Below, in pieces: positions 3,428-53,225 of a stretch of 64,000 nucleotides of DNA. The stretch is from the NCBI GenBank assembly GCA_030698395.1, contig JAUYKW010000008.1:1662-65661 (forward strand), in the 5' to 3' direction. The notes under the pieces are model-generated. The model saw nothing but the letters and a program-made list of their open reading frames with translations, was not told the origin of the DNA and made no database searches. The position numbers were made by a program, and so were the translations under genes. Source of the stretch: a bacterium (lineage in GTDB: Bacteria; Patescibacteriota; Patescibacteriia; UBA9570). Numbering within the stretch: position 1 is the first letter of the stretch; each line of letters starts with the position of its first letter.

Positions 3428-4972
3428 ATGGGCACTGTTGACTTCCTACAAGGAGATGAAAAAAAGTCTAAGAAGTCAGACAAAAATCAGCCTGCTCAAT
3501 ATGGTATTGAATATACGAATCCAGACGGAGATTATTCAGAACCATTAAAAGCAAAGAAGGAGAAAAAGAAATTTTCTTTATTTGGAGGGAAAAAGAATAA
3601 ACAAAGAATGCAAAAAGATAATGTCTTAGGTGTTGATTTGGTGAAATCTAGTGAAGAACAGAAGAATAAAATAAAGAGAGTAAAAATTGCAAAAATTAAG
3701 AAAAAGAAAGATAAAAAAGATGTTGATGATTCTGTTGTTGAGAGTGAGGCTTTAGATGTTGAACAACCAGTAAGTGTGAAGGCATCTTTGCCGACAGCTA
3801 ATGTTATGTCTAAAGATAAGGTGATAATTGCGTCTGATACCATAGATACTACTGTAATGAAAAATGATGAGACATTAAAAATAGAGGAGAAAAAGCCAAC
3901 TATACCAATAGCTCCAGTGGTACCTCCAGTTGTGCCAGTTATTCCATCACCGCAAACAGTGATAAAAGAAATGCCTGTTATGTCTGTGCCTTCTAAAAAA
4001 ACAACACCAGATGCAGTAAAAACAAGTGATGAAAGTTTGCCACATTTTGCTGTACCAGAAAAAAAAGTAAAAATTCCAACACCTCCGCCACCACCAGTAC
4101 ATGCTCAACCAGTGCCAAAAAAGGTGGAACCAAAAGTGGAACCTAGTATTAAAGTACCTCCGCCACCAGCTATAGTTACTCCAACTCAAATGCCAACAAC
4201 AGAGTTACCATTAAGTACTGCACAGTCTGGTAGGGTACATTCGAAGAATGTGCAGGCAATTCATGGCAAAGAGACAGATCCTGAACTTGGTCTTGCTTCA
4301 AATTTTTTAATTAATCTTTTGCCATCTGATCTTGTTGATGAATTCAGGCCAATATCGAGAATAGCCAATTTAATCAAAGTGGCAATATATACGGTAGTTG
4401 GCATTGGTGTGCTTTATGGTGCAATGATTGCGTACCAATTCTTTTTTATAATTCAAACTCAAAATAACTTAGAAGAGATATCAAAATTAGATCAAGAGAT
4501 ATTAACATATAAAGATTTACAAACAGATATCAATGAAAGTGATAAAAAAATTGAAGCTTTTAATTCTATAGTTACACAACACGTTTATTGGTCTAACTTT
4601 TTTGAGCTCTTAGAAAAATATACTTTACCTAACGTACATTACACGACTTTCGCTGGAACCGTAGATGGTAAGATAACTTTGCAGGCTACAACTACAGATT
4701 ATGCATCAGTAAGTAGACAAGTAGCTGTATTAAAAGACGCAACTGATTTTATTAAATCAGTTTACGTTACTAACGCTTCGAGCACAGTGACATCATCTGG
4801 AGAAGAAGCGAATACTGAAAATCAAGATGCTTTAGTTGAGGAATTGCCGATCGATGAGTTGCCTAGTGATGATTCAGTTGCAGTTGCACCTAAATCAAAT
4901 GAAGTTTTATTTGCGATTTCTGCTGAACTAAACCCTGATATTTTCTTATATAAGCGTTATGAAATTGAATAG
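3428..4972 (+). CDS. pilN: PilN-like inner-membrane pilus assembly protein, with a ~300-aa Lys/Pro-rich low-complexity N-terminal region.
   Basis: A single TM segment (IANLIKVAIYTVVGIGVLYGAMIAYQFFFII) is followed by a coiled-coil and a ferredoxin-like periplasmic part, as in PilN. The N-terminal half is K/E/P-rich, with PPVVPVIP and PPPPPVHAQP repeats. Confidence 0.6.
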   Translation: MGTVDFLQGDEKKSKKSDKNQPAQYGIEYTNPDGDYSEPLKAKKEKKKFSLFGGKKNKQRMQKDNVLGVDLVKSSEEQKNKIKRVKIAKIKKKKDKKDVDDSVVESEALDVEQPVSVKASLPTANVMSKDKVIIASDTIDTTVMKNDETLKIEEKKPTIPIAPVVPPVVPVIPSPQTVIKEMPVMSVPSKKTTPDAVKTSDESLPHFAVPEKKVKIPTPPPPPVHAQPVPKKVEPKVEPSIKVPPPPAIVTPTQMPTTELPLSTAQSGRVHSKNVQAIHGKETDPELGLASNFLINLLPSDLVDEFRPISRIANLIKVAIYTVVGIGVLYGAMIAYQFFFIIQTQNNLEEISKLDQEILTYKDLQTDINESDKKIEAFNSIVTQHVYWSNFFELLEKYTLPNVHYTTFAGTVDGKITLQATTTDYASVSRQVAVLKDATDFIKSVYVTNASSTVTSSGEEANTENQDALVEELPIDELPSDDSVAVAPKSNEVLFAISAELNPDIFLYKRYEIE

Positions 4973-35587: not shown

Positions 35588-35854
35588 ATGATCGAAAAAT
35601 CTTTAGAAGAATTAAGAGAGCAGATTGATAATATTGATGAAAAGATAATAAAATCAATTGGTGAAAGGTTTTTGGTTGTTGAGAAAATTGGAAAACTAAA
35701 GCAGGCGACTGGAATTCCAGTGCAAGATCCACACCGAGAAGCAAAATTATTATTGAAATTAAATACTTTAGCTCAGAAATATAACGTGTCCATTGAGGTA
35801 GTTACTCATATATATGACTATTTAATGCATCATTCCAGAGATAGCCAGCAGTAG
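35588..35854 (+). CDS. AroQ-class chorismate mutase.
   Basis: It is an 88-aa helical protein, with LEELREQIDNID...IGKLK typical of AroQ chorismate mutase. Confidence 0.8.
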   Translation: MIEKSLEELREQIDNIDEKIIKSIGERFLVVEKIGKLKQATGIPVQDPHREAKLLLKLNTLAQKYNVSIEVVTHIYDYLMHHSRDSQQ

Positions 35855-35871
35855 CATTATTAAAGAAAATT

Positions 35872-35900
35872 TTGACACTTTATAAAGTATAAATTATAAT
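35872..35900 (+). promoter_or_regulatory. Perfect consensus sigma70 promoter: TTGACA, 17 nt, TATAAT.
   Basis: The sequence is ttgaca-ctttataaagtataaat-tataat. Confidence 0.55.
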
Positions 35901-35906
35901 GTTCTT

Positions 35907-36095
35907 AAGTTTATGAATTTTATACACAGCAACAACTTATCTAAGCTTAAATGGACAGTGGTCTCTTCTATTAAGACACTGGTACGTATTTATTTACATA
36001 TAGCGCGGGCAAGGATAAGCAATGCAATTACATAAGTTGCATAATAAACAGAAAAGCTGCAACCTTAGCCCGCGAAAAAAACGCGGGATTTTTAT
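35907..36095 (+). ncRNA. Candidate ~190-nt small RNA or leader transcript, running from the consensus promoter to an intrinsic terminator. It contains a long imperfect stem (36003-36014 with 36063-36074) that competes with the terminator stem, and an optional 30-codon sORF.
   Basis: The promoter and terminator were read from the sequence, with no gene in between. It could not be matched to SRP RNA, 6S RNA, tmRNA or RNase P consensus motifs. Confidence 0.3.
36068..36095 (+). terminator. Intrinsic terminator: stem cccgcg / cgcggg, a 7-A loop, and a T-run.
   Basis: The sequence is gcccgcg-aaaaaaa-cgcggg-atttttat. Confidence 0.55.
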
Positions 36096-36230
36096 ATATT
36101 ATTTCTAGACTACTCGACTGGTATCCTCCGCACTAGTTGAGTCGCCTGGAAAGTAATTTCCAGATTATCGTTCTTTGTAAAGTATTTATCCCTATTTTTA
36201 GAAGTTATTCTGTTAATGGTGATAAAACAA

Positions 36231-36251
36231 TTTTAGAGGCAACGTGAAATT
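36231..36251 (+). repeat. Conserved leader box TTTTAGAGGCAACGTGAAATT, copy 1. Copy 2 is at 37283-37303, and a degenerate copy 3 is at about 37815-37835.
   Basis: Two copies are identical over 21 nt. Each lies upstream of a GC-rich ORF in the island. Confidence 0.6.
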
Positions 36252-36275
36252 AAATCTGGTTTAAAACGTAGCAGA

Positions 36276-36342
36276 GCGAGGAAAATGGTTTTTGTAGATA
36301 CGCGATTAATCGCGTATCTACGGATAAAAATATTTTCCTCGC
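36276..36342 (+). repeat. 67-nt inverted repeat. The outer arms are gcgaggaaaat / attttcctcgc. They enclose a perfect 28-bp palindrome, GTAGATACGCGATTAATCGCGTATCTAC (36294-36321).
   Basis: Read directly from the sequence. It lies about 80 nt upstream of the first GC-rich ORF. Confidence 0.7.
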
Positions 36343-36422
36343 TCCGGCTACCTAGTAGACCGGATTTCTCGGGTCATAGACCCATCCTCATACTCCTGCT
36401 GAAAAGCATGTGGAGATTCTCG

Positions 36423-37064
36423 ATGTCTGTTCGCCCTTCCAGTCCCTGCTCCAAGCTCGTCGTGCTCGCCGATGATGCTCCTGCCCTCTCCGTTCTCTGC
36501 GAGTTCATCGAGCCCAAGGCTATCGGTGGTCGCTGCATGTCCTTCGAAAGCACTCAGGTGCTGTTCTTCAACCGGAACAATCTGCAGGGCCTCGTGGCTC
36601 GGGTCGTGGTTCGGCGCACTGCTCGACCGCTCGGCGACAACATCGTATCTGTGCGCACGGTCGACGTGATCGTGGTGAACAGCGAAGATGATCTTCGACA
36701 CTACTTGCAGGACTCCCAGGTGTTGCATCTGCGCAGCACCGATCAGCGCCAGCCTGCCATGTACACCTTCACCCACAGCAAGATGTTCCCCAAGCCGCCC
36801 AGTGGTAGTGCTCACATCTGTCAGTTCGAGACTGGTCACCTGCAGAGTCACCTCCGGAACCTGGTGTCGGTTCTCTACTCGGGATGGTTCTCCCGCAAAC
36901 CGCAGGATGCCACGGTCTGCACGCCGAACAGCGCCATCGCCCAGATGTCTGGCTACATCGGACGTTCCACCCTGGCCTTCGAGGAAGGAGGTTATGGCGG
37001 AAGCGTGCAGTTCGGTCAGGACGACGCTTACGACGCGATCCGCGAGGACGGTTCTCGCTTGTAG
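36423..37064 (+). CDS. GC-rich (~60% GC) hypothetical protein of 213 aa, with strong G/C bias at codon third positions.
   Basis: The + frame has about 85% G/C at third positions with very few A, while all other frames look like wrong-frame GC-rich noise (R/P/S-rich). An SD (GGAGA) lies 8 nt upstream of the ATG at 36423. No known motifs were recognised. Confidence 0.5.
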   Translation: MSVRPSSPCSKLVVLADDAPALSVLCEFIEPKAIGGRCMSFESTQVLFFNRNNLQGLVARVVVRRTARPLGDNIVSVRTVDVIVVNSEDDLRHYLQDSQVLHLRSTDQRQPAMYTFTHSKMFPKPPSGSAHICQFETGHLQSHLRNLVSVLYSGWFSRKPQDATVCTPNSAIAQMSGYIGRSTLAFEEGGYGGSVQFGQDDAYDAIREDGSRL

Positions 37065-37080
37065 AAGAGCGAATAGAGGG

Positions 37081-37197
37081 CACGATTCGTCGTGGACAGT
37101 GATGGTAGACCGCATGACACCTCCTGTCGGGCTTCTTCTTTTCACGTTGCCCACCTCTCCTTTGTTTATCTATTAGCCCTTGCTAAATGGTAGAAAA
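37081..37197 (+). repeat. Conserved ~115-nt 3' trailer element, copy 1. H1 is CACGA-UUCG-UCGUG. H2 is gacag...ctgtc. H3 is gggc...gccc. Then follows ACCTCTCCTTTG and an AATGGTAGAAAA box.
   Basis: It is about 85% identical to 37633-37745, and a degenerate third copy is at about 38166-38240. Compensatory changes keep the stems intact: H2 is gacag/ctgtc in copy 1 and gacaa/ttgtc in copy 2; H3 is gggc/gccc in copies 1 and 2 and aggc/gcct in copy 3. Confidence 0.65.
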
Positions 37198-37320
37198 TAA
37201 GGTAAATAATGTAGTGGTAATAATTAGTCGTTCCTTTTATTTGTACTGGATGAATAACACTATTCTTTCAGTATTAACAGTATTTTAGAGGCAACGTGAA
37301 ATTCTAGCTGGTAATGTCCT

Positions 37321-37362
37321 AGGGTGAGGATATTGGTTTTATAACCAATGCCCCCACCCTGG
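37321..37362 (+). repeat. Conserved 5' leader stem-loop, copy 2: AGGGTG-AGGATATTGGTTTT-hairpin-ATGCCCCC-CACCCT. Copy 3 is at 37866-37919: TGTTGGGGT-AAGGATATGGGTTTTT-...-ATGCCCCC-ACCCCAACA.
   Basis: The closing stem differs in sequence but keeps its pairing in the two copies. A related AGGAAAATGGTTTTT motif sits in the 67-nt IR upstream of ORF1. Confidence 0.5.
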
Positions 37363-37620
37363 CTTACATTCGTAAAGCTGGAAATTGGGTTTCGACCCAC
37401 CCCTCAACCCCTCGAAAGGATCCTCCAGGTGGCTAAGAAAAAGCGGAAGAAGGAAGTTTGTAGAAGTGGTAGCAAGAAGATTCGTGTTGTGCAAATCAGC
37501 GATGCGGAACTTCGCAGGAGTACTATATCTGAGCTTTGTCGGAAGTATCATGGACGCATGGTCGTTGTTAACGGTCAGCGGTTCCTGATGACGAACGAAG
37601 AGCACAGCGAACACACCTGA
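37348..37620 (+). CDS. Small basic protein (63-90 aa depending on start), moderately GC-rich, a paralog of the 37933-38136 ORF.
   Basis: The ATG at 37348 lies inside the conserved noncoding ATGCCCCCACCC motif. A GTG at 37429 preceded by AAAGGA is a plausible alternative start. It shares ELCRKYHGRMVVVNG with EFCRRYNGQQVTIGS in the next ORF. Confidence 0.4.
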   Translation: MPPPWLTFVKLEIGFRPTPQPLERILQVAKKKRKKEVCRSGSKKIRVVQISDAELRRSTISELCRKYHGRMVVVNGQRFLMTNEEHSEHT

Positions 37621-37632
37621 GCAACCTGGGGT

Positions 37633-37745
37633 CACGATTCGTCGTGGACAATGATGATGGACTATTCGTCGTCACTTGTCGGGCTTCAACTCTTCACGTT
37701 GCCCACCTCTCCCTTGACTATTATCATTAAAAATGGTAGACAAAG
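37633..37745 (+). repeat. 3' trailer element, copy 2.
   Basis: See copy 1. The identical H1 hairpin cacgattcgtcgtg is present. Confidence 0.65.
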
Positions 37746-37932
37746 GATTGGTGAAAGTCATTCGTTCTTTATAACTAATGTGATGACTCACAATAATATT
37801 GTGATAGTTACTATTTTTTTCAGGCAATATGAATAGATCGTGGGCTAAACGTCCAAAAGGACTATGTTGGGGTAAGGATATGGGTTTTTCGATAAAAATC
37901 TATGCCCCCACCCCAACAAGTAAGGAGTGCTC

Positions 37933-38136
37933 ATGAATGCACCAGATGCTGAGCCCGGCGGTGTACGTGGCAGCGAGAGAGAGGTAGATCGAGACATGCA
38001 GAGATTTTCAGCGCGGGAGTTCTGCCGGCGTTACAATGGTCAGCAGGTCACTATCGGCTCCATGCGGATTCACATTCGCTACGAGCCCACTCCCTCGTTG
38101 CCGCGCGATCGGCCGGAGGCGCAGCTGTCCATCTAG
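37933..38136 (+). CDS. Small protein (67 aa) paralogous to the 37348-37620 ORF.
   Basis: A strong SD, AAGGAG, lies 5 nt upstream of the ATG at 37933. About 68% of third positions are G/C. The upstream ATGCCCCCACCCC motif is out of frame and terminated, so it is noncoding here. Confidence 0.45.
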   Translation: MNAPDAEPGGVRGSEREVDRDMQRFSAREFCRRYNGQQVTIGSMRIHIRYEPTPSLPRDRPEAQLSI

Positions 38137-38165
38137 GGCAGCGGAGGTTGTGGCTGGTGGTGCAG

Positions 38166-38240
38166 TCATAGACAAGATGGTAGGCTACGCCCCATCCTGT
38201 TAGGCTTACCGTTTTCATATTGCCTACCTCTCTTTTGATT
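38166..38240 (+). repeat. 3' trailer element, degenerate copy 3.
   Basis: It aligns to copies 1 and 2 over GATGGTAG...TCCTGT..GGCTT...TTTTCA..TTGCC.ACCTCTC.TTTG, with stem covariation. Confidence 0.5.
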
Positions 38241-38374
38241 AGCTAGTAAGCTAGTTGTTTAGAAGAGAGGTAAGTTTCAACAGGATCTTTCCCAAGTACG
38301 TTTAGTTGCACTAGCGACTTTGCGTCAACAGTTTTTTTGACAACGTCAGTTATGCACCTACCTAGCAGGAGGAG

Positions 38375-38467
38375 ATGGTAGGGAAGTTGCAGCAAGAGGT
38401 GCTGCAGGTGGGATTTTTCGTCTCCATCCCATTGGACAACCCGCTGACGTTGTCCCTTTCCTTATAA
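38375..38467 (+). CDS. Possible 30-codon sORF (MVGKLQQEVLQVGFFVSIPLDNPLTLSLSL) bracketed by an 11-nt inverted repeat (gacaacgtcag at 38338-38348, ctgacgttgtc at 38444-38454).
   Basis: An AGGAGG lies immediately upstream of the ATG. It is short and unsupported otherwise. Confidence 0.15.
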   Translation: MVGKLQQEVLQVGFFVSIPLDNPLTLSLSL

Positions 38468-38573
38468 ATATCATTTGTTGGTACTTATAAGGATTTGGAT
38501 AATTGTGAATAAGTTAAATAATATAAGTTGACTTATTAAAAAAATAATATATTCTTTATTTTAAGAAGTATTT

Positions 38574-38663
38574 ATGAATATTCTTTTTGCCCAAATAAAT
38601 CTTATTAGCATTATTAGCCTGCTTATTAGCCATGGTTCTTTGCGTTATGAACAAACTTAAGTA
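38574..38663 (+). CDS. Possible 29-aa hydrophobic peptide (MNILFAQINLISIISLLISHGSCVMNKLK), followed by a terminator.
   Basis: It is a short ORF in host-like AT-rich composition. An intrinsic terminator lies 25 nt downstream. No clear SD was seen. Confidence 0.2.
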
Positions 38664-38684
38664 AAAAAGTAATTCAAACGTAAA

Positions 38685-38713
38685 GAACCCTGTCAAATAT
38701 CGCAGGGTTTTTT
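38685..38713 (+). terminator. Intrinsic terminator: aaccctg-tcaaatatcg-cagggtt-ttttttt.
   Basis: Read from the sequence. Confidence 0.55.
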
Positions 38714-38811
38714 TATTGCCTCATTAATTTCTCCTTTAACAGGGGATGAGAACCGTACGGCGGTAGGAGGAGTCTATCGTTCTTCCTGTACGCTTCGGCA
38801 ACGAGGATACA

Positions 38812-39036
38812 ATGTACCGGCGCGGTACCTGGGAGTTTTATCAGTTCAACGCCGTGTTTCACGCTGAGCTGGTCAGGTGTTCGAATGGCATCGTGGCGCT
38901 GATGTGGCGCAACGAGGTGCACAAGACCGGTGCCAACGAAGTGACCATTGCGTACCGACGGTTCGAGCGTCAGCAGTGGAGCTTCTGGGCTCATTCGGCC
39001 ACAGGAGGCACCTGTGACACGTCCGCGGTCTACTAG
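38812..39036 (+). CDS. GC-rich hypothetical protein (74 aa) with high G/C at third positions.
   Basis: About 78% of third positions are G/C. A GGAGG lies about 45 nt upstream and the proximal SD is weak (GAGGAT). It is flanked by an inverted repeat: gcgagacggcgg (39083-39094) and ccgtcgtctcg (39137-39147). Confidence 0.35.
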   Translation: MYRRGTWEFYQFNAVFHAELVRCSNGIVALMWRNEVHKTGANEVTIAYRRFERQQWSFWAHSATGGTCDTSAVY

Positions 39037-39231
39037 CAGCTCCGAGAGCGTTGCTACGCCTGACGCAAATACGGAATCTCACGCGAGACGGCGGCATGGG
39101 TTGACTAGATGTATTTATGTACGTCTTGCTATCACCAGCCGTCGTCTCGACCGTTCATCTTATTTATTGTTTAATTTGCTCTAAGAAATAAAATCATTTA
39201 TACTCATTAAAGTTAAGTTAAAGGATATATC

Positions 39232-41829
39232 ATGCAAAATTCTTTCGAACAATTACAAAATTACCTTGCTAAAAATCCAGATTTAGTTGCAGAAACTACG
39301 CGGCGGAAGCGAACATTAGTTTACATCGCTGGAATGTCTTTGGATCAAGAGGAGCTTGCTAAGGTACGAGGTATTGAGTTTTACGAAGAACGTTTATTAT
39401 ACGTTGTTGGCTTATTACGAGATCCAAACACTAAGATTGTTTTTGTATCCTCAAAGCAAATTGATCCAGTTATTATTGATTATTATTTTGATTTATTTAG
39501 TAGATCTCAGAAAGAGCGGATTAGCATGGAGAAAAGATGGCATCATTTTTATATTGGTAATAGTAGAATTCATAAAACTTTAACTCAAAAAGTTTTAACA
39601 TCAAAACGGTTGGTTATTCAAATTAATCAGCAAATTGATAATACTAAGCAAGCTGTATTACGGTGTTTTAATTCGTCTGAAGATGAAAAAGCCCTAGCAG
39701 TTAAATTAAATATTCCTTTATATGCTCCAGATCCTAAATTTTTACATTATGGATCGAAATCCGGAGCTCGTCAGGTGTTCAAGCAAGCAGGTTTAAAACC
39801 ACCATATGGAGTAGAAAATATTACCTCAATGTTGGAGTTGATTAACTCAATTAGAAAAATTAAACAGCATGAGAAGGGGGTTGAACAAGTTGTTGTAAAA
39901 TTTGATTACAGCTTTTCTGGAGTAGGTAATGCTAATTTGACGGTAAGCAAATTTCCACGTACAAATGTAGCTGCCGAGAAGTACATTAAAACTCATCTTA
40001 AACCAAATGAATCAGATGTTACTGCGATTCAGTATTTAAAAAAGTTATTTGATATTGGTGGAATTGTTGAAACGTGGTTACAAGGAATACGAATCTTTTC
40101 ACCAAGTGTTCAGTTAGCAATAGATCCAGATAAGAGTGTCCGGATTATTTCTAGTCATGAGCAGTTGCTTGATGAAGAAACAAAACAAGTTTTTTTAGGA
40201 GCTAGATTTCCGGCTCGTAAATCGATGAGACAACCTTTGTTACTACAGGCAGAAAAGGTGGGAAAAGAATTAGCTGATGCAGGAGTGATTGGATTTTTTG
40301 GAATAGATTTTATTGCTGTGAAAGAGAAAACAAAATATGTTGCGTATCCTATTGAAATAAATTTGCGCAAAGGTGGAGCAACACATCCTTTTCAGATAGC
40401 TAGAATGTTAACGCAAGGTAGCTATAAAAAAGATGGAGCTATGCGTGATGATTCACGACAGAGGATTGCATATTATTCTTTTGATAACATTAAATCTACA
40501 GATTACGTTGGTTTGAAGCCTGAGGAAATTATTAAAATAGTTAAGCAAGCAGGGCTAGAATTTGATCATGAAAATAATGGTGGAGTTTCTTTACACTTGT
40601 TAGGAAGCTTAAAAAAATATGGAAAATTTGGTACAGTTTGTATTGCACGTTCACCACGAGCAGCTGAGCAATTATTTATCATTTTAACTAAGGTTGTTGA
40701 TGCGTATGTGGCACGAAAATCAGAAATTGAAATTGTTACACCTCAAGTAGTTTCTGTAAATCAAAAGAGATTGGTTGATACTTTTATAAAATTAGTTAAG
40801 ATTGCTAGTCCTTCAGGAGAAGAAGCAAAAATTAGATTATTGCTTAGAGAAGAATTAGTGAGATTGGGCGTAAAAACAAGAGTTGATAAGTCAGGAAATT
40901 TAATCGGTAAAAAACCAGGTGTAGGTACCGTACCGTTTTTGTTATCAGCACATATGGATACTGTAAAACCATGTGAAAATGTTAATCCCGTAATTAGGGG
41001 AAATACTATCATGACAGATGGCACTACTATATTGGGCGCAGACAACAAGGCTGGAATTGTATATATTTTGGAGCTACTGCGATTATTGCATGAATTTGAT
41101 ATTAAACATCGGCCATTAGAAATAGTAATGTCTGTCTGTGAAGAACAGTTTTCGGGTGGAGCAGACGAACTTGATGTTTCTAAATTAAAATCTCCAGTTG
41201 GTCTGGTTGTGGATGGTGCTGATTTAGGGGAGGTTGATTATATTTCACCTTATATAGCAACCATTAATGTATCTGTTATTGGTAAAGCTGCTCATTCTGG
41301 AGTAGAGCCAGAAAATGGTGTAAGTGCGATTCAGATAGCATCTAACGCTATTGCAAATATGCCATTAGGAAGACTTGATCATGATACGACTGCAAATATT
41401 GGCTTAATTACTGGTGGGACTAATAGAAATGCAATTCCAGATCGAGTAGAATTAGAAGGAGAAGTACGAAGTTTAACAAAACGATATTTAGAAGAACAGT
41501 TAGAGCGAATGCATAAGGCTTTAGAAGATGCTGCTGAGTTATATGGCGGGTTACTTGATATTTCTAGTAAGATAGCTGTTCAAGGTTACAAATTTTCCAA
41601 AAATGATCCTGATTTAAAGAAGATTATGCAGATTATGAAAGAAGTAGACATTAAACCAGATTTAAGGAAAGCTGGGGGTGGTTCAGATGCGAATGTATTT
41701 GTTGCTAGAGGCATAAAAACTATTGATGTTGGGACAGGTGTACAGAAGCCACATACTGTTGAAGAGAGTATAAAAATAGACGACATGACGAAGATGGTAG
41801 AATTTTTATTAAAGATTGTCCAAGTTTAG
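39232..41829 (+). CDS. Two-domain protein: an N-terminal ATP-grasp-type ligase domain fused to a C-terminal M20-family metallopeptidase domain (peptidase T/ArgE/DapE-like).
   Basis: The ATP-grasp signatures are VVVKFDYSFSGVGN (compare VxxKP..GSxGxGV) and GIDFIAV...YPIEINLRKGG (compare EVNxxPG). The M20 signatures are SAHMDTV, GADNKAG and IGKAAHSG. Confidence 0.55.
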   Translation: MQNSFEQLQNYLAKNPDLVAETTRRKRTLVYIAGMSLDQEELAKVRGIEFYEERLLYVVGLLRDPNTKIVFVSSKQIDPVIIDYYFDLFSRSQKERISMEKRWHHFYIGNSRIHKTLTQKVLTSKRLVIQINQQIDNTKQAVLRCFNSSEDEKALAVKLNIPLYAPDPKFLHYGSKSGARQVFKQAGLKPPYGVENITSMLELINSIRKIKQHEKGVEQVVVKFDYSFSGVGNANLTVSKFPRTNVAAEKYIKTHLKPNESDVTAIQYLKKLFDIGGIVETWLQGIRIFSPSVQLAIDPDKSVRIISSHEQLLDEETKQVFLGARFPARKSMRQPLLLQAEKVGKELADAGVIGFFGIDFIAVKEKTKYVAYPIEINLRKGGATHPFQIARMLTQGSYKKDGAMRDDSRQRIAYYSFDNIKSTDYVGLKPEEIIKIVKQAGLEFDHENNGGVSLHLLGSLKKYGKFGTVCIARSPRAAEQLFIILTKVVDAYVARKSEIEIVTPQVVSVNQKRLVDTFIKLVKIASPSGEEAKIRLLLREELVRLGVKTRVDKSGNLIGKKPGVGTVPFLLSAHMDTVKPCENVNPVIRGNTIMTDGTTILGADNKAGIVYILELLRLLHEFDIKHRPLEIVMSVCEEQFSGGADELDVSKLKSPVGLVVDGADLGEVDYISPYIATINVSVIGKAAHSGVEPENGVSAIQIASNAIANMPLGRLDHDTTANIGLITGGTNRNAIPDRVELEGEVRSLTKRYLEEQLERMHKALEDAAELYGGLLDISSKIAVQGYKFSKNDPDLKKIMQIMKEVDIKPDLRKAGGGSDANVFVARGIKTIDVGTGVQKPHTVEESIKIDDMTKMVEFLLKIVQV

Positions 41830-48359: not shown

Positions 48360-50495
48360 ATGTCAAATACTGAATTTAATCTCAAGAATGTGCGTAATAT
48401 CGGAATCATTGCACATATTGATGCTGGTAAAACAACTACTACTGAGCGTGTTTTGTTTTATACTGGAAAAAAACATAAGATTGGTGAAGTTCATGAAGGT
48501 GAAGCAGAAATGGATTGGATGGAACAGGAACAAGAGCGTGGTATTACAATTACATCTGCGGCAACAACAGCATTTTGGAAATTACCAGAATTTTTAGGTG
48601 GCGGTGAAGCGTGGATAAATATTATTGATACTCCAGGTCATGTAGATTTTACTGCAGAAGTAGAGCGTTCTCTGCGTGTTTTAGATGGAGGAGTTGTGGT
48701 ATTTGATGGAGTAGCTGGAGTGGAGCCACAATCAGAAACAGTTTGGCATCAAGCAGAAAAGTATAAGGTGCCAAGAATTTGTTTCATTAATAAGTTAGAT
48801 AGAACAGGTGCTGATTTTTATAAAGATGTTGATTCTATCCACGATCGTTTAACTAAACTTGCATTTCCAATTCAATTACCAATTGGAACTGAAGAAAACT
48901 TTAGTGGAGTAGTGGATTTAATCGAACAAAAGGCATTTATATATAAAGATGATTTAGGACAAGATATTGAAGAAGTCGAAATTCCAGAGGACATGAAGGA
49001 GAAAGCAGCAGAATATCGTAGTGCAATGCTTGATGCTGTAGTTGAACAGGATGAAGAGTTAATGAATTCATATTTAGATGGCACGGAGCCAACTCCAGAT
49101 CAGATTAGAGTAATGATGCGTAAAGGTGTGATTGCAAATGAATTCATTCCTATTATGTGTGGTACTGCTTTAAAGAATAAAGGAGTACAGCGTTTATTAG
49201 ATGCTGTAACGGCATTTTTACCATCTCCTTTAGATTTACCAGATGTTAGTGGTCATGATTATAAAGATGAAGAAAAAGAGCTTTCTTTTTCAGCTGATGC
49301 ATCTGGACCTTTGGCTGCTTTAGCATTTAAAGTTGCAACTGACCCGTTTGTGGGTAAATTAATTTTTGTGCGAGTGTATTCTGGTACATTAAAATCTGGA
49401 TCATATGTGTTTAATGCTACTACAGGTAAGAAAGAAAGAATTTCTAGAATTGTTCGTATGCACGCAAATAGCCGTGATGAGATTGATGAAATTCGAGCTG
49501 GAGACATTGCAGCAGTAGTAGGATTAAAGGAAACAGTTACTGCAGATACTTTGTGTGAACCAGAGAATCCAGTTATTCTTGAAAAGATTGTATTTCCAGA
49601 ACCAGTAATTTCGGTCGCTATTGAACCAAAAACTAAGTCAGATCAAGAAAAAATGTCAATTGCTTTACAGAAGCTTGGTGAAGAGGATCCCACCTTTAAG
49701 GTGGAGTCTAATGAGGAAACAGGGCAAACCTTAATTTCTGGAATGGGTGAGTTGCATTTAGAAATTCTAGTAGAACGCATGAAGCGTGAATTTACCGTAG
49801 AAGCAAATGTTGGAGCACCGCAGGTTGCATATCGTGAAACTATTAAAAAGATGGCTGACGCCGAAGGTAAGTACATTAAACAGTCTGGTGGACGTGGTCA
49901 GTATGGTCATTGCTTCTTAACTATCGAGCCATTAACCGATGAAGATAGAGGTGAAGATACAGATATGACATTTATGTTTATAGACAAGGTTAAGGGTGGT
50001 CGGATTCCAAAAGAATTTATTGGTCCGATTCAAAAAGGTGCACGCGAAGCTATGGATAAAGGTGTGTTAGCAGGATATCCATTATTGAATGTTAAAGTAA
50101 CAGTTACTGATGGTAGTTATCATGATGTGGATTCTTCGGAAATTGCATTTAAGATGGCTGGAATAATGGCATTTAAATCAGCTGTACAAAAGGCTGATGC
50201 TGTAATTCTAGAACCAGTTATGAAAACTAGCGTTATTACTCCAGAGGATTATATGGGTGATGTAGTTGGTGATTTGAACTCAAAACGTGGCCAGATTTTA
50301 GAGATGGGTGATCGCGGAAAAGCGAAGGTTATTGAAGCATTGGTGCCTTTAGCAGAAATGTTTGGTTATTCTACTTCACTGCGTTCCATGACCCAGGGTA
50401 GAGCATCTTATTCTATGCAGTTTGAGAAGTATGATGAGGTACCAAGAAATATTATGCAAGAATTAATGGAGAAACACACTACTGGAGATAAGTAA
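48360..50495 (+). CDS. fusA: Elongation factor G.
   Basis: G1 is [10 protein letters not shown]3 is DTPGHVDF. Length is 711 aa. Confidence 0.95.
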
Positions 50496-50636: not shown

Positions 50637-51878
50637 ATGCTCTCATTTTTATCAAAATATGCTCATCCATTTGAAAAGCAGGTAGATACTTTCTTCAAGC
50701 ATATTTCTAGTACCAGCGATCCGCAAAAGGTGCATAAATCAATTGAGCGTCTGTTGCAGAAAAATGTTGTAGTAGTAAACCTTTGGATGGAAAAACGATT
50801 TAAAAATTATCGTTATTTGTCTAATGCTAAGCGGAAGAAGTTATATGCAAATACTGAAACTATAGTTGAAGCTTTTATAAAATTTCAAGAAGCACACAAA
50901 TCAAATCCTGATAATTTACATCAAATTTTTATAACTCATCAAGTATCGTATCCAGAACAATATTCTGAACACCTTGCTTATATAGATGCGATTATGAACT
51001 TTCTGAAACCAGGAGGTAATTATCATTATATTAAGTCCGCTACTTTCGGAAAACTACTTCAAAATCCAGCACAGGGAAAGTTAACGGGGGATTGTAATCA
51101 AATAGTTACTTTATATGTTTATCTATATTCATTGAAATATCCGATTACTGATTTACAGATTAAAATTCTTCCAGAACATGTATGTTTGCACTTCAAAGGT
51201 ATTGATATAGAGGCTACAACAGCTACATTCACAAAATATACAGAATTTGATTATACGGCACCTATTAGCGAGCTTTTATCCGTTAATTTACTGGATGTAT
51301 CTGATTTTCGGGAGACTACTGCTACTATTTCTGAGCATTCCATCGTGAAAAGTGCTGAATTAGCATATACAGTTAGTAGTATGCGAGAATTGGTGACTAG
51401 AAATTTACGAATTTCGTATCATAATCTGGCATTAGTAACTACTGAACGGAAAAATTTTAAAACAGCAATGTTTTATGCAAAGAAAAATGGAGATCAGAAA
51501 TTATTGGAATATGTGAATTATCGTGCAACTATGCATTATGTAGAAAATAAAATGTACGACAAAGCTCGGTATTATGCAAAGCAATCTGGAGATGCAAAAT
51601 TAAATTCGTTTGTGATTACAAATGAGGCTAATAGGTATTTGAAGAAGGGAAGTTATAAGAAAGCCAGAGGAATTTATCAAAAAGTTGGAGATGCGAGAAT
51701 GGTTCAAGTTACTTATCAACAGGAATATAATTCTTTAGTAAAAACTGTACAAGCGTTAAAAACAGTTGAGCAAATGAAGAAGCGCAAAACAACATATCGA
51801 ACTTTATTGCAGTTGGCACAAAAAGGGGGATTGAGCGAACAGATGAATCAAATCAGAAATGTGTTAAAACAGCTGTAA
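50637..51878 (+). CDS. Hypothetical protein (413 aa) inserted between fusA and tuf.
   Basis: The ORF is intact in host composition. No motifs were recognised. Confidence 0.4.
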   Translation: MLSFLSKYAHPFEKQVDTFFKHISSTSDPQKVHKSIERLLQKNVVVVNLWMEKRFKNYRYLSNAKRKKLYANTETIVEAFIKFQEAHKSNPDNLHQIFITHQVSYPEQYSEHLAYIDAIMNFLKPGGNYHYIKSATFGKLLQNPAQGKLTGDCNQIVTLYVYLYSLKYPITDLQIKILPEHVCLHFKGIDIEATTATFTKYTEFDYTAPISELLSVNLLDVSDFRETTATISEHSIVKSAELAYTVSSMRELVTRNLRISYHNLALVTTERKNFKTAMFYAKKNGDQKLLEYVNYRATMHYVENKMYDKARYYAKQSGDAKLNSFVITNEANRYLKKGSYKKARGIYQKVGDARMVQVTYQQEYNSLVKTVQALKTVEQMKKRKTTYRTLLQLAQKGGLSEQMNQIRNVLKQL

Positions 51879-52034
51879 TTTTGCATATTATGGTATATTT
51901 TTGACATTGTGTCAATAATTTAGCTAATTAAACTACTTATCCACAGCTTTTAAATAGGTCCTTTCTTTACAGGGTTATGAATGTTGTTATAATAGCTTGG
52001 CTATTTTAACTTGATAACAACAATATTTTTCAAT

Positions 52035-53225
52035 ATGGCCGAAACTTTTGATCGCTCAAAACCACATTTAAATGTGGGAACACTGGGTCACGTAGACCAC
52101 GGTAAAACAACAACAACAGCAGCTATTTTATCTGTTTTAAACAAACAGGGTGGAGTTGCTCAGGATAAAAGCGTTGACCAAATTGATAACGCTCCTGAAG
52201 AAAAGGAACGTGGTATTACAATTAATACCGCTCATGTAGAGTATGAGACTGAAAATCGTCATTATGCTCATATTGATTGTCCAGGACATGCTGATTACAT
52301 TAAAAACATGATTACTGGTGCCGCTCAGATGGATGGTGCTGTTCTTGTAGTATCTGCATCTGATGGACCTATGCCTCAGACTCGTGAGCATATCTTATTA
52401 GCTCGCCAAGTAGGTGTGCCTGCGTTCGTTGTATTTTTAAACAAGGTTGATCAAGTTGAAGACGAAGAATTATTAATGTTGGTAGAAGAAGAGATTCGTG
52501 ATTTATTAACCAAATATGAATTTGATGGTGCAAATACACCAATTATTCGTGGTTCAGCTCTTAAAGCACTAGAAAATAAAGATGACGAATCTGCAACAAA
52601 ACCAATTGTTGATCTTTTAGCTGCTCTTGATGAATTCATTCCAGAACCAAAACGTGATGTTGATAAAGACTTCTTAATGGCTATTGAGGATGTAATGTCT
52701 ATCGAAGGTCGAGGAACAGTAGTTACTGGAAGAATTGAAAGCGGAATTATCAATGTTGGTGGTGAGGTTGAAATTGTTGGTGTTAGAGACACTACTAAAA
52801 CAACTGTAACTGGCATTGAAATGTTTAATAAAACATTAGATGAAGGTAGAGCAGGTGATAATGCTGGTATTTTGTTACGTGGAACAAAGAAAGAAGATGT
52901 TGAACGTGGACAAGTGCTTGCAAAACCAGGAACTGTTACTCCTCATACAGAATTTGAAGCAGAGGTGTATGTTTTATCAAAAGAAGAAGGTGGTCGACAC
53001 AAACCATTTATATCTGGTTATAAACCACAATTCTATATGCGTACAACTGATGTAACTGGTGAAGTTTTCTTACCTGAAGGAACTGAAATGGCTATGCCTG
53101 GAGATACATTAAATGTAACAGTTAAATTAATCGTGCCAGTAGCAATTACTGATAAACAAACTTTTTCAATTAGAGAAGGTGGACATACTGTAGGTGCTGG
53201 AGTAGTAACAAAGGTTGTAAAATAA
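52035..53225 (+). CDS. tuf: Elongation factor Tu.
   Basis: The motifs GHVDHGKTT and DCPGHADY are present. The start is set at [11 protein letters not shown]. Confidence 0.95.

Follow-up and report, generated by a model that had tools for sequence, protein, structure and literature searches.

A 64,000-nt segment of a Patescibacteria chromosome (hereafter the window; lineage UBA9570, GenBank:GCA_030698395.1, contig JAUYKW010000008.1, positions 1,662 to 65,661 of the forward strand) raises the question of what surrounds the GC-rich orphan genes of a 3.4-kb island, flanked by the genes for chorismate mutase (35588-35854) and for a PGM1-like ATP-grasp/M20 peptidase fusion (39232-41829). An initial annotation of this DNA had noticed a trailer of about 115 nt behind each GC-rich open reading frame (ORF) and regarded it as a self-contained, conserved structured RNA element. 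Examination of the trailers revealed that their best-conserved block (TTTCACGTTGCC in unit 1) belongs to an inverted repeat of 11-14 nt as its 3′ arm, the 5′ arm (GGCAACGTGAAA) being situated upstream of the same ORF. As this conserved and covarying block (TTCACGTTGCC in unit 2) pairs with a partner 290-900 nt upstream, across the ORF, the trailer makes up the 3′ half of a two-part frame enclosing each gene. Because the arms change together across several Patescibacteria genomes, each gene most likely lies in a closed, heavily folded mRNA module of its own, of a type absent from present catalogues; we put the probability that each GC-rich orphan gene of this hypervariable island sits in its own module paired from 5′ to 3′ end at about one half.

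Paired arms and their covariation

The units of the window were arranged in the order of the 5′ arm (IR-L), a long leader hairpin, a Shine-Dalgarno (SD) sequence with the ORF, two short hairpins (H1 and H2), the 3′ arm (IR-R) and a pyrimidine tract. The tract contributes the 5′ arm to an additional hairpin, which contains the ATGGTAGA box and is located outside the closing helix. The arm consensus was GGYAACGU... for IR-L and ...ACGUURCC for IR-R. In unit 3, CG was replaced by TA in both arms relative to units 1 and 2; since the proteins of units 2 and 3 are weak paralogues (BLASTP E 3e-6 over 27 aa), this double change arose after duplication of the module. The arm core matched the window six times, each time inside the island. 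Inverted repeats of at least 10 nt occurred at 2.2/kb in the islands and 1.8/kb in host DNA, a generic count that does not separate the two; the signal lies in motif and position, not in inverted-repeat density.

Seven variants of the arm were found, each matched by its own partner (GGCAACGTGAAA, AGGCAATATGAA, GGCAACGTGAT, TGGGTAACGTAATA, GGTAACGTTAAGG, GGACAACGGT and GACAACGTCAG), and they came from genomes in which the flanking proteins were only 51-66% identical. In a 14-pair helix aligned for seven units, which had been chosen for matching 8-nt cores, 87.8% of the cells were paired, versus 30-48% when the partner was slid by one to three columns. Among these seven units, both partners had changed at eight of the 14 helix positions, at no position had only one partner changed, and the observed covariation score was reached by 0 of 500 shuffles. 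The one single-sided change that was seen (GGTAACGTAAGG/CCTTATGTTACC in locus L103) gives a G-U pair on the sense strand. These data support the earlier suggestion that the pairing is under selection.

Folding of whole units was consistent with such a closure. On the + strand, z-scores far below those of shuffled sequence (-4.27, -5.02 and -5.87) were obtained, with the closing helix present in both the minimum free energy (MFE) structure and the centroid of all three units, whereas the - strand gave -2.57 and -3.78, was weaker by 16-25 kcal/mol, and two host coding segments of equal length gave only -0.75 and -0.93. Of eight trailers, seven folded more stably as the + strand, and G-U pairs numbered 27 on the sense strand versus 9. 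All ten clean units were co-oriented with the flanking genes. Since neither arm is part of the ORF, ribosomes translating it would not open the helix.

The prospect of further copies was borne out in other genomes. By means of protein-guided context look-ups, starting from homologues of the unit 1 protein (U1) and of the ATP-grasp/M20 protein, the architecture of IR-L, leader hairpin, GC-rich orphan ORF, 3′ hairpins, IR-R and pyrimidine tract was identified in eight other Patescibacteria loci from metagenomes or metagenome-assembled genomes (among them L086, L087, L089, L098, L099, L101 and L103), with two units each in L086 and L099. Six of the eight have the same place upstream of an ATP-grasp/M20 gene, with different ORFs. 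The hosts of the U1-homologue loci were AT-rich, and the U1-family genes were located in different genomic contexts, each with the frame. The two units of L086 had unrelated ORFs (IR-L AAGGCAACGTGAAAT, IR-R TCACGTTGCCCGCCTTTC), while L087 and L089 contained IR-L and a homologous leader hairpin before the contig ended; leader hairpins homologous to that of unit 1 were present in L087 and L099. Seven syntenic loci (L098-L104) were reached through ATP-grasp/M20 homologues of 51-66% identity, and all of them had GC-rich orphan ORFs directly upstream of this gene, even where the other upstream neighbour differed (L102 and L104). The island ORFs differed from genome to genome, and in all relatives it was a unit of the unit 4 type that immediately preceded ATP-grasp/M20. 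Matched arm variants in L098, L099 (two units), L101 and L103 were GGCAACGTGAT, TGGGTAACGTAATA, GGACAACGGT, GGTAACGTTAAGG and GGTAACGTAAGG. The most distant relatives, L102 and L104, had no GGYAACGT arms but retained both hairpins (leader and trailer) and a C-rich tract. L089 and L103 had a near-identical terminator, IR-L and leader base around unrelated ORFs; therefore, the frame is a conserved scaffold and not the end of a mobile DNA.

Scans with fixed patterns were less productive than these look-ups. A genome-contig scan with TTCAYRTTGCCYACCTCT gave 85 single matches, the number expected by chance, and none was island-like beyond the seed; this pattern was over-specific, excluding the later-found variants CGCCTTTC and ACCCACCTT, and its outcome is no evidence of absence. 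The viral contigs gave six chance matches to CACGTTGCCCRCCTYTC, in high-GC phage genes, and the metagenome contigs two chance matches inside coding regions to the too narrow pattern TCACGTTGCCCRCCTYTCYBTK. No match to the island was found by blastn in the phage and plasmid collections, and our literature searches found no described equivalent in Patescibacteria or the candidate phyla radiation (CPR).

Homologous units without a long ORF were observed in L098 (8693-8972) and L100 (~370-700), both containing GGGTTCGATTCCCC, which resembles a tRNA T-arm, as well as a hairpin in which the two genomes differ by compensatory changes; their sense strand was 18 kcal/mol more stable than the antisense strand. 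Matched arms (GGCAACGTGAT/ATCACGTTGCC) were present only in the ORF-less unit of L098, L100 having the IR-R-like CTGTTCACGTTGCCCACTTTCC and no recognisable IR-L. These units may be a non-coding RNA cassette; despite the T-arm-like GGGTTCGATTCCCC in unit 1 of L098, ARAGORN detected no tRNA or tmRNA in the window or the islands. It was also noticed that in L101 the sequence GGAGGCAACGTG (3508-3518) is apparently the SD and GTG start of a GC-rich ORF of ~360 aa, its partner CTCACGTTGCCG (3926-3937) being inside that ORF.

Trailers, and possible DNA sites or cassette arrays

The features that the initial annotation had described in the trailers were all found at the positions given, with some corrections. 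The UUCG hairpin CACGATTCGTCGTG is exact at 37081-37094 and 37633-37646; the arms of H2 are GACAG (37095-37099) and CTGTC (37124-37128) in copy 1 and GACAA and TTGTC in copy 2, the compensation being a single event; and TTGCC[CT]ACCTCT occurs at 37147, 37699 and 38220 only, within the 64-kb window. ATGGTAG was present five times within 37102-38375, where the frequency in the remainder of the window predicts 0.17 (Poisson P ~1e-6). The trailers are not terminators, as had been stated, having no T-run after them, and the sites returned by a terminator scan (36069 and 38434) included none at the three trailers. Nor did they match a catalogued RNA family: Rfam 15 gave 0 matches at gathering thresholds over the whole window, and at E<=5 the region 35800-39300 gave two chance-level matches only (22 and 18 bits, versus gathering scores of 99 and 63). 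The identity of 85% given for copies 1 and 2 had to be lowered to 76% with gaps, and it was uneven (100% in H1, 62% in the H2 region and 86% in the block of H3, IR-R and pyrimidine tract); copy 3 was 61-63% identical to copies 1 and 2. The trailer said to follow each GC-rich ORF does so in units 1-3, whereas the fourth ORF (38812-39036) carries a different one. The tract described as resembling an anti-SD sequence was kept in all relatives as a pyrimidine tract (CC.CCTYTC), which is also the 5′ arm of a further downstream hairpin.

The trailer as a conserved structured element by itself did not hold: outside the window the sequences of H1 and H2 were not conserved, and only a couple of hairpins recurred between the stop codon and IR-R. 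Folding of the trailer copies gave local hairpins weakly better than shuffles (z +0.9 to -2.8, mean ~-1.2, negative in eight of nine trailers), with copy 1 at +0.9. For helix H3, the arms and the compensated change were present (GGGC, 37129-37132, with GCCC, 37149-37152, in copies 1 and 2; AGGC with GCCT in copy 3), but it has 4 bp and a 16-nt loop and is at best a weak local alternative for the IR-R block; its 3′ arm is the end of IR-R, which belongs to the much stronger long-range inverted repeat. It is quite improbable that the trailer acts as a stabiliser or processing signal of the 3′ untranslated region (UTR) through H1, H2 and H3 with no need of a 5′ partner. Such an element would account for the identity of H1 in copies 1 and 2, the one compensated pair each in H2 and H3, the two or three hairpins that precede IR-R in nine trailers and the sense-strand enrichment of G-U pairs; the individual z-scores, however, are weak, H1 and H2 are not kept in copy 3 or in any other genome, the block conserved across genomes consists of IR-R and the pyrimidine tract only, and the 3′ arm of H3 has a perfect pairing of 11-14 nt with IR-L. 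Still less probable, and already disfavoured, is that the repeats are neutral, functionless leftovers of tandem duplication of one gene module. The weak paralogy of the proteins of units 2 and 3 and the homology of the inter-unit spacers are in line with duplication, yet decay would break the complementarity, whereas each of the seven variants matches its partner in genomes as divergent as those described above, and in L089 and L103 it is the frame that is near-identical and the ORFs that differ.

The strongest competing explanation has the arms acting on DNA, as recombination or transposition sites (heterospecific inversion or excision sites, or terminal inverted repeats (TIRs) of non-autonomous cassettes) by which the GC-rich genes are swapped; we consider this unlikely, though deserving of weight. 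An island at a fixed place upstream of ATP-grasp/M20 in seven genomes, with different ORFs of foreign composition each time, is what such sites could produce, but all ten clean units point the same way with no sign of inversion, no target-site duplication was seen, and the similarity from unit to unit runs on through the spacers past the arms. Identical cores specific to each pair of partners are a requirement of site-specific recombinases, and the invariant arm letters and the near-absence of one-sided pair changes fit the same idea; no recombinase, transposase or reverse transcriptase (RT), however, was detected by Pfam/NCBIfam search in 35 of the 52 non-overlapping window ORFs of at least 150 aa, five of these 35 matching no family. 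While the frame accompanies U1-family genes in different contexts, L089 and L103 keep it with different ORFs; the six arm-core matches of the window are all in the island, and the island itself had no match in the phage and plasmid collections. Furthermore, the systematically greater stability of the sense strand is not predicted by DNA sites. A particular form of DNA site, the attC of an integron-like array (cluster of attC sites lacking an integron-integrase, CALIN) with the trailers as attC, appears the least credible of all. The tandem, co-oriented small orphan ORFs, the conserved structured repeats of ~100 nt between them and the complementarity of each unit start to a box after its ORF, like split R′ and R″ boxes, do recall integron cassettes, but the arms are GGYAACGT and ACGTTRCC at a distance of 290-900 nt, not RYYYAAC and GTTRRRY, the R/L box consensus is missing, the trailer is a series of separate hairpins instead of one imperfect palindrome of 57-141 nt, and signals of a sense-strand RNA are present. 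The AT-rich inter-unit spacers (141-162 nt) folded weakly as single-stranded DNA (-15 kcal/mol, z ~-2.3), for which reason they were rejected as attC. Neither intI nor another tyrosine recombinase was found among the 35 of 52 large window ORFs searched. The attC reading was judged without a dedicated model, and Rfam is not known to hold attC, so that the empty Rfam scans say nothing on it.

Putative closed mRNA module and its analogues

For the closed mRNA module, the following course may be proposed. Transcription from the strong upstream promoter would mostly end at the terminator; RNA that reads through, or that starts at weak promoters in the spacers, would fold unit by unit, and the IR-L/IR-R helix would close each whole cistron (290-920 nt) into a compact, heavily folded domain. 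By analogy with hok and the intervening sequences (IVS) of rRNA, the stem could protect the unit ends or define them for RNase III processing out of read-through transcripts, and the closed unit may stay stable and poorly translated until processed or opened. The anti-SD-like tract beside IR-R and the upstream ORF (uORF) of unit 3 would fit such a control of translation. This uORF of 35 codons (37829-37936) starts at an ATG created by the CG-to-TA change in IR-L, runs through the leader hairpin and overlaps the main start by ATGA, an organisation suggestive of translational coupling; at the same place units 1 and 2 have only GTG mini-ORFs of 6 and 3 codons. That IR-L generally serves as the SD and start codon of a mini-ORF was rejected, as GTG or ATG occurs in the GGCAAC variants but GTA or GTT in the GGTAAC variants. 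TTGCCC-N17 or the ATGGTAGA box gave weak matches as a promoter.

Several points weigh against the closed mRNA module. The choice of units by matching cores inflates the paired fraction, and positions outside the cores also covary; weaker pairs (L086 unit A and L100 unit 1) and the arm-less L102 and L104 were left out of the pair counting. The near-absence of G-U intermediates fits matched DNA sites equally well, and the six invariant letters of the arm (GG.AA..T.A) suggest that, beyond pairing, the arm is recognised by a protein. The way ORFs turn over at this fixed site is what would be expected of a cassette system. The leader hairpins did not favour either strand (the + strand was the more stable in four of eight), and it could be the numerous local GC-rich hairpins, and not a global fold, that account for part of the low z-scores of whole units. 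With 11-14 bp, the core helix is shorter than would be expected of a classical RNase III site (28 bp in the IVS stem of Coxiella), and the proteins (63-218 aa, soluble-looking) are unlike type I toxins. Finally, no antisense RNA was evident in the units, where two weak minus-strand promoter-like sites (9/12) in the unit 2 ORF were at the chance rate.

A 5′-3′ UTR stem of the kind proposed is known from hok, in which the tac/fbi pairing keeps the full-length mRNA stable and untranslated until the 3′ end is trimmed (PMC9841398), and a long-distance 5′-3′ stem with the same effect is reported for the type I toxin mRNA of Helicobacter pylori aapA1/IsoA1 (PMC5416894). In hok/Sok and aapA1 a compact mRNA of ~400 nt is closed by such a stem, which here is predicted and supported by covariation; anti-SD-like tracts occur in both, and the overlapping uORF of unit 3 sits where mok does relative to hok. 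The proteins here have 63-218 aa, whereas those toxins are small hydrophobic peptides (under ~60 aa), an antisense antitoxin RNA is not evident in the units, and the units form tandem arrays with interchangeable, GC-rich ORFs in an AT-rich host, with no sequence or Rfam similarity to these systems. In rRNA genes, IVS containing an ORF are bounded by terminal inverted repeats that are cut by RNase III (PMC4990558), as in Coxiella burnetii, where the stem at helix 45 of 23S rRNA has 28 bp, and insertions of this kind are common in the rRNA genes of CPR bacteria (PMC11270868). Like these selfish elements, the units have complementary termini that would form a stem around an ORF-containing segment of a few hundred nt; unlike them, they have a stem of 11-14 bp, stand in tandem, contain ORFs unrelated to S23p and are located between chorismate mutase and ATP-grasp/M20 genes in a window with no rRNA gene.

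Retron msr-msd regions, in which inverted repeats border a non-coding RNA of ~200 nt beside an RT gene, differ from the units, which contain ORFs and span 290-920 nt; no RT domain was found among the same 35 of 52 large window ORFs. In repeats of the miniature inverted-repeat transposable element (MITE) type, such as Correia/NEMIS of Neisseria and ERIC, the TIRs fold into RNA stems in transcripts and can be RNase III targets; these repeats are 100-150 bp long, non-coding and present in hundreds of dispersed copies with target duplications. The arms here differ from such MITE and insertion sequence ends in that they enclose whole genes, are found only in the island within the window and have no target duplication, and in that homology continues past them. 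The modules are thus not in any of the families tested (Rfam, attC, rRNA IVS, type I toxin, MITE, terminator and retron); in the way they are supposed to work they are most like the 5′-3′ stem of hok and aapA1 and the IVS stalk, by analogy.

It is rather unlikely that the modules make up an undescribed class of self-contained units specific to Patescibacteria, in which a covarying 5′-3′ stem (GGYAACG core, anti-SD-like tail) locks each GC-rich, highly structured orphan gene into a closed RNA domain, the whole being kept as an exchangeable set beside ATP-grasp/M20. The frame, and not the gene, may be the conserved unit, a landing pad and processing signal inside which ORFs are swapped. IR-L (AAGGYAACGUA...) and IR-R with its tail (...CGUUGCC-CACCUCUCCUUU) also appear to resemble the two strands of helix 45 of 16S rRNA with the anti-SD tail (GGUAACCGUAGG...CGGUUGGAUCACCUCCUUA), for instance at 37140-37164 and in L103 at ~2108 and 2870; the frame may mimic this helix-45/anti-SD end of 16S rRNA. 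If the closed mRNA module is correct, an uncultured, host-dependent lineage would pack fast-turnover orphan genes into uniform closed mRNA scaffolds, a design so far documented mainly for the tiny mRNAs of type I toxins and for rRNA intervening sequences. It would also give a handle on how genes of 55-70% GC, with relatives only inside such modules, persist in genomes of 36-51% GC, and a motif pair (IR-L with leader; trailer with IR-R and pyrimidine tract) with which CPR genomes and metatranscriptomes could be searched.

Island features, setting and encoded proteins

The positions of the units and of the promoter-like and terminator elements are given in Table 1.

Table 1. Predicted features of the island, in window coordinates
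Feature	Position	Strand	Remarks
Upstream module	35872..36095	+	promoter, 40-codon ORF and intrinsic terminator
Consensus promoter TTGACA-17-TATAAT	35872-35900	+	12/12 match
40-codon ORF (MNFIHSNN...) of upstream module	35913-36035	+	
Intrinsic terminator CCCGCG..CGCGGG, then T-run	36069-36095	+	
Unit 1 IR-L GGCAACGTGAAA	36238..36249	+	pairs with 37140-37151 in MFE and centroid of whole unit
Unit 1 leader hairpin	36252..36367	+	inner stem 36274-36344; perfect palindrome GTAGATACGCGATT/AATCGCGTATCTAC at 36294-36321
Unit 1 ORF, 218 aa, GC-rich orphan	36408..37064	+	NCBI gene call starts at 36423, 213 aa
Unit 1 trailer hairpins	37081..37128	+	H1 CACGA-UUCG-UCGUG 37081-37094; H2 GACAG...CUGUC 37095-37128
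Unit 1 IR-R TTTCACGTTGCC (37140-37151), then pyrimidine tract CACCTCTCCTTTG	37140..37164	+	
Unit 1 hairpin H4, downstream of IR-R	37156..37203	+	5′ arm pyrimidine tract; 3′ arm with ATGGTAGA box 37187-37193
Unit 2 IR-L GGCAACGTGAA	37290..37300	+	partner TTCACGTTGCC 37693-37703
Unit 2 leader hairpin GGGUGAGGAUAUUGG...CCAAUGCCCCCACCC	37319..37362	+	
Unit 2 ORF, 63 aa, GTG start uncertain	37429..37620	+	weak paralogue of unit 3 ORF
Unit 2 trailer hairpins H1, H2	37633..37680	+	
Unit 2 IR-R TTCACGTTGCC (37693-37703), then pyrimidine tract and H4 with ATGGTAGA box (37733-37739)	37693..37745	+	
Unit 3 IR-L AGGCAATATGAA	37822..37833	+	CG to TA relative to units 1 and 2; partner TTCATATTGCCT
Unit 3 leader hairpin	37861..37921	+	
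Unit 3 ORF, 67 aa	37933..38136	+	SD AAGGAG ahead
Unit 3 trailer hairpins, two	38149..38201	+	
Unit 3 IR-R TTCATATTGCCT (38214-38225), then pyrimidine tract	38214..38272	+	tract is 5′ arm of near-perfect 48-nt hairpin 38225-38272
Mini-unit without ORF	38339..38465	+	IR-L-like GACAACGTCAG 38339-38349; IR-R-like CTGACGTTGTC 38444-38454, then CCTTTCCTTAT
Second, weaker promoter-like site and terminator hairpin, ahead of unit 4	38528..38712	+	promoter-like site 38528-38555; terminator hairpin ~38689-38712
Orphan IR-R-like ATTGCCTCATTAATTTCTCC after second terminator	38707-38730	+	
CGGCAACGAGG just upstream of unit 4 ORF	38796-38806	+	
Unit 4	38812..39160	+	GC-rich 74-aa ORF 38812-39036 (GC at third codon position 0.77), different frame; long 3′ hairpin ~39085-39150

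The arms of the mini-unit form a perfect 11-nt inverted repeat around ~95 nt containing AGGAGGAG-ATG and an ATGGTAG box, and the region has a local hairpin at 38434-38455. Another perfect 11-nt inverted repeat, CCTCGTTGCCG (38093-38103) with CGGCAACGAGG, joins the unit 3 ORF, at its end, to the leader of unit 4. A perfect palindrome, GTAGA(G/T)ACGC...GCGT(C/A)TCTAC, was observed to recur in leader and inter-unit hairpins, in the unit 1 leader of the window as well as in L087 (284-320) and L099 (7832-7860, 8449-8476 and 9101-9127). In the window and in L099 it was confined to the island; it may be an insertion of the repetitive extragenic palindrome (REP) type or a protein-binding site.

The same consensus promoter, a small ORF and a strong terminator of the type CCCGC..GCGGG-T-run were also found ahead of the islands in L098, L099, L100, L101, L102, L103 and L104. 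The small ORFs (20-45 codons) encode a peptide that is not conserved between islands, and this module may function as attenuator, leader peptide or small RNA.

The four unit proteins, of 218, 63, 67 and 74 aa, are charged and soluble-looking, and no unit ORF had a match in Pfam. An exhaustive search among 1.8 billion representatives gave four remote homologues of the unit 1 protein, which is deposited as a hypothetical protein, with common motifs such as LVVLADD..A and GGRC. Its AlphaFold model was of moderate quality (predicted local distance difference test score, pLDDT, 63), with an alpha/beta fold matching generic alpha/beta folds only. Coding on the minus strand of unit 1 (a 268-aa ORF with a AGGAGGTGTC-ATG start) was rejected, since the GC contents at codon positions 1, 2 and 3 (0.60, 0.45 and 0.75) fit the + frame and it is the + product that has homologues. 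In public gene calls, minus-strand ORFs of 172, 116, 135 and 539 aa were placed on GC-rich units (L099 7947-9830 and L101 3389-5008); the plus-strand ORFs there have SD sequences, so these minus-strand calls are probably artefacts of GC-rich DNA. Annotators should be warned that gene callers put spurious minus-strand ORFs on such units. That the island always immediately precedes the ATP-grasp/M20 gene suggests that the small proteins and this enzyme are functionally connected.

The window as a whole is a bacterial chromosome segment of 36% GC with all large ORFs on the + strand, including type IV pilus genes, ligA, gatA, the trp and aro operons, fusA, tuf, ribosomal protein genes and secY, and the GC content climbs to 52-62% within the island, in four blocks. 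Homologues of the 865-aa ATP-grasp/M20 protein carry the name 'Patescibacteria group bacterium'. Elsewhere in the window, a 413-aa ORF without a Pfam/NCBIfam match (50637-51878) was observed between fusA (48360-50495) and tuf (52011-53225), an unusual insertion into this conserved gene pair.

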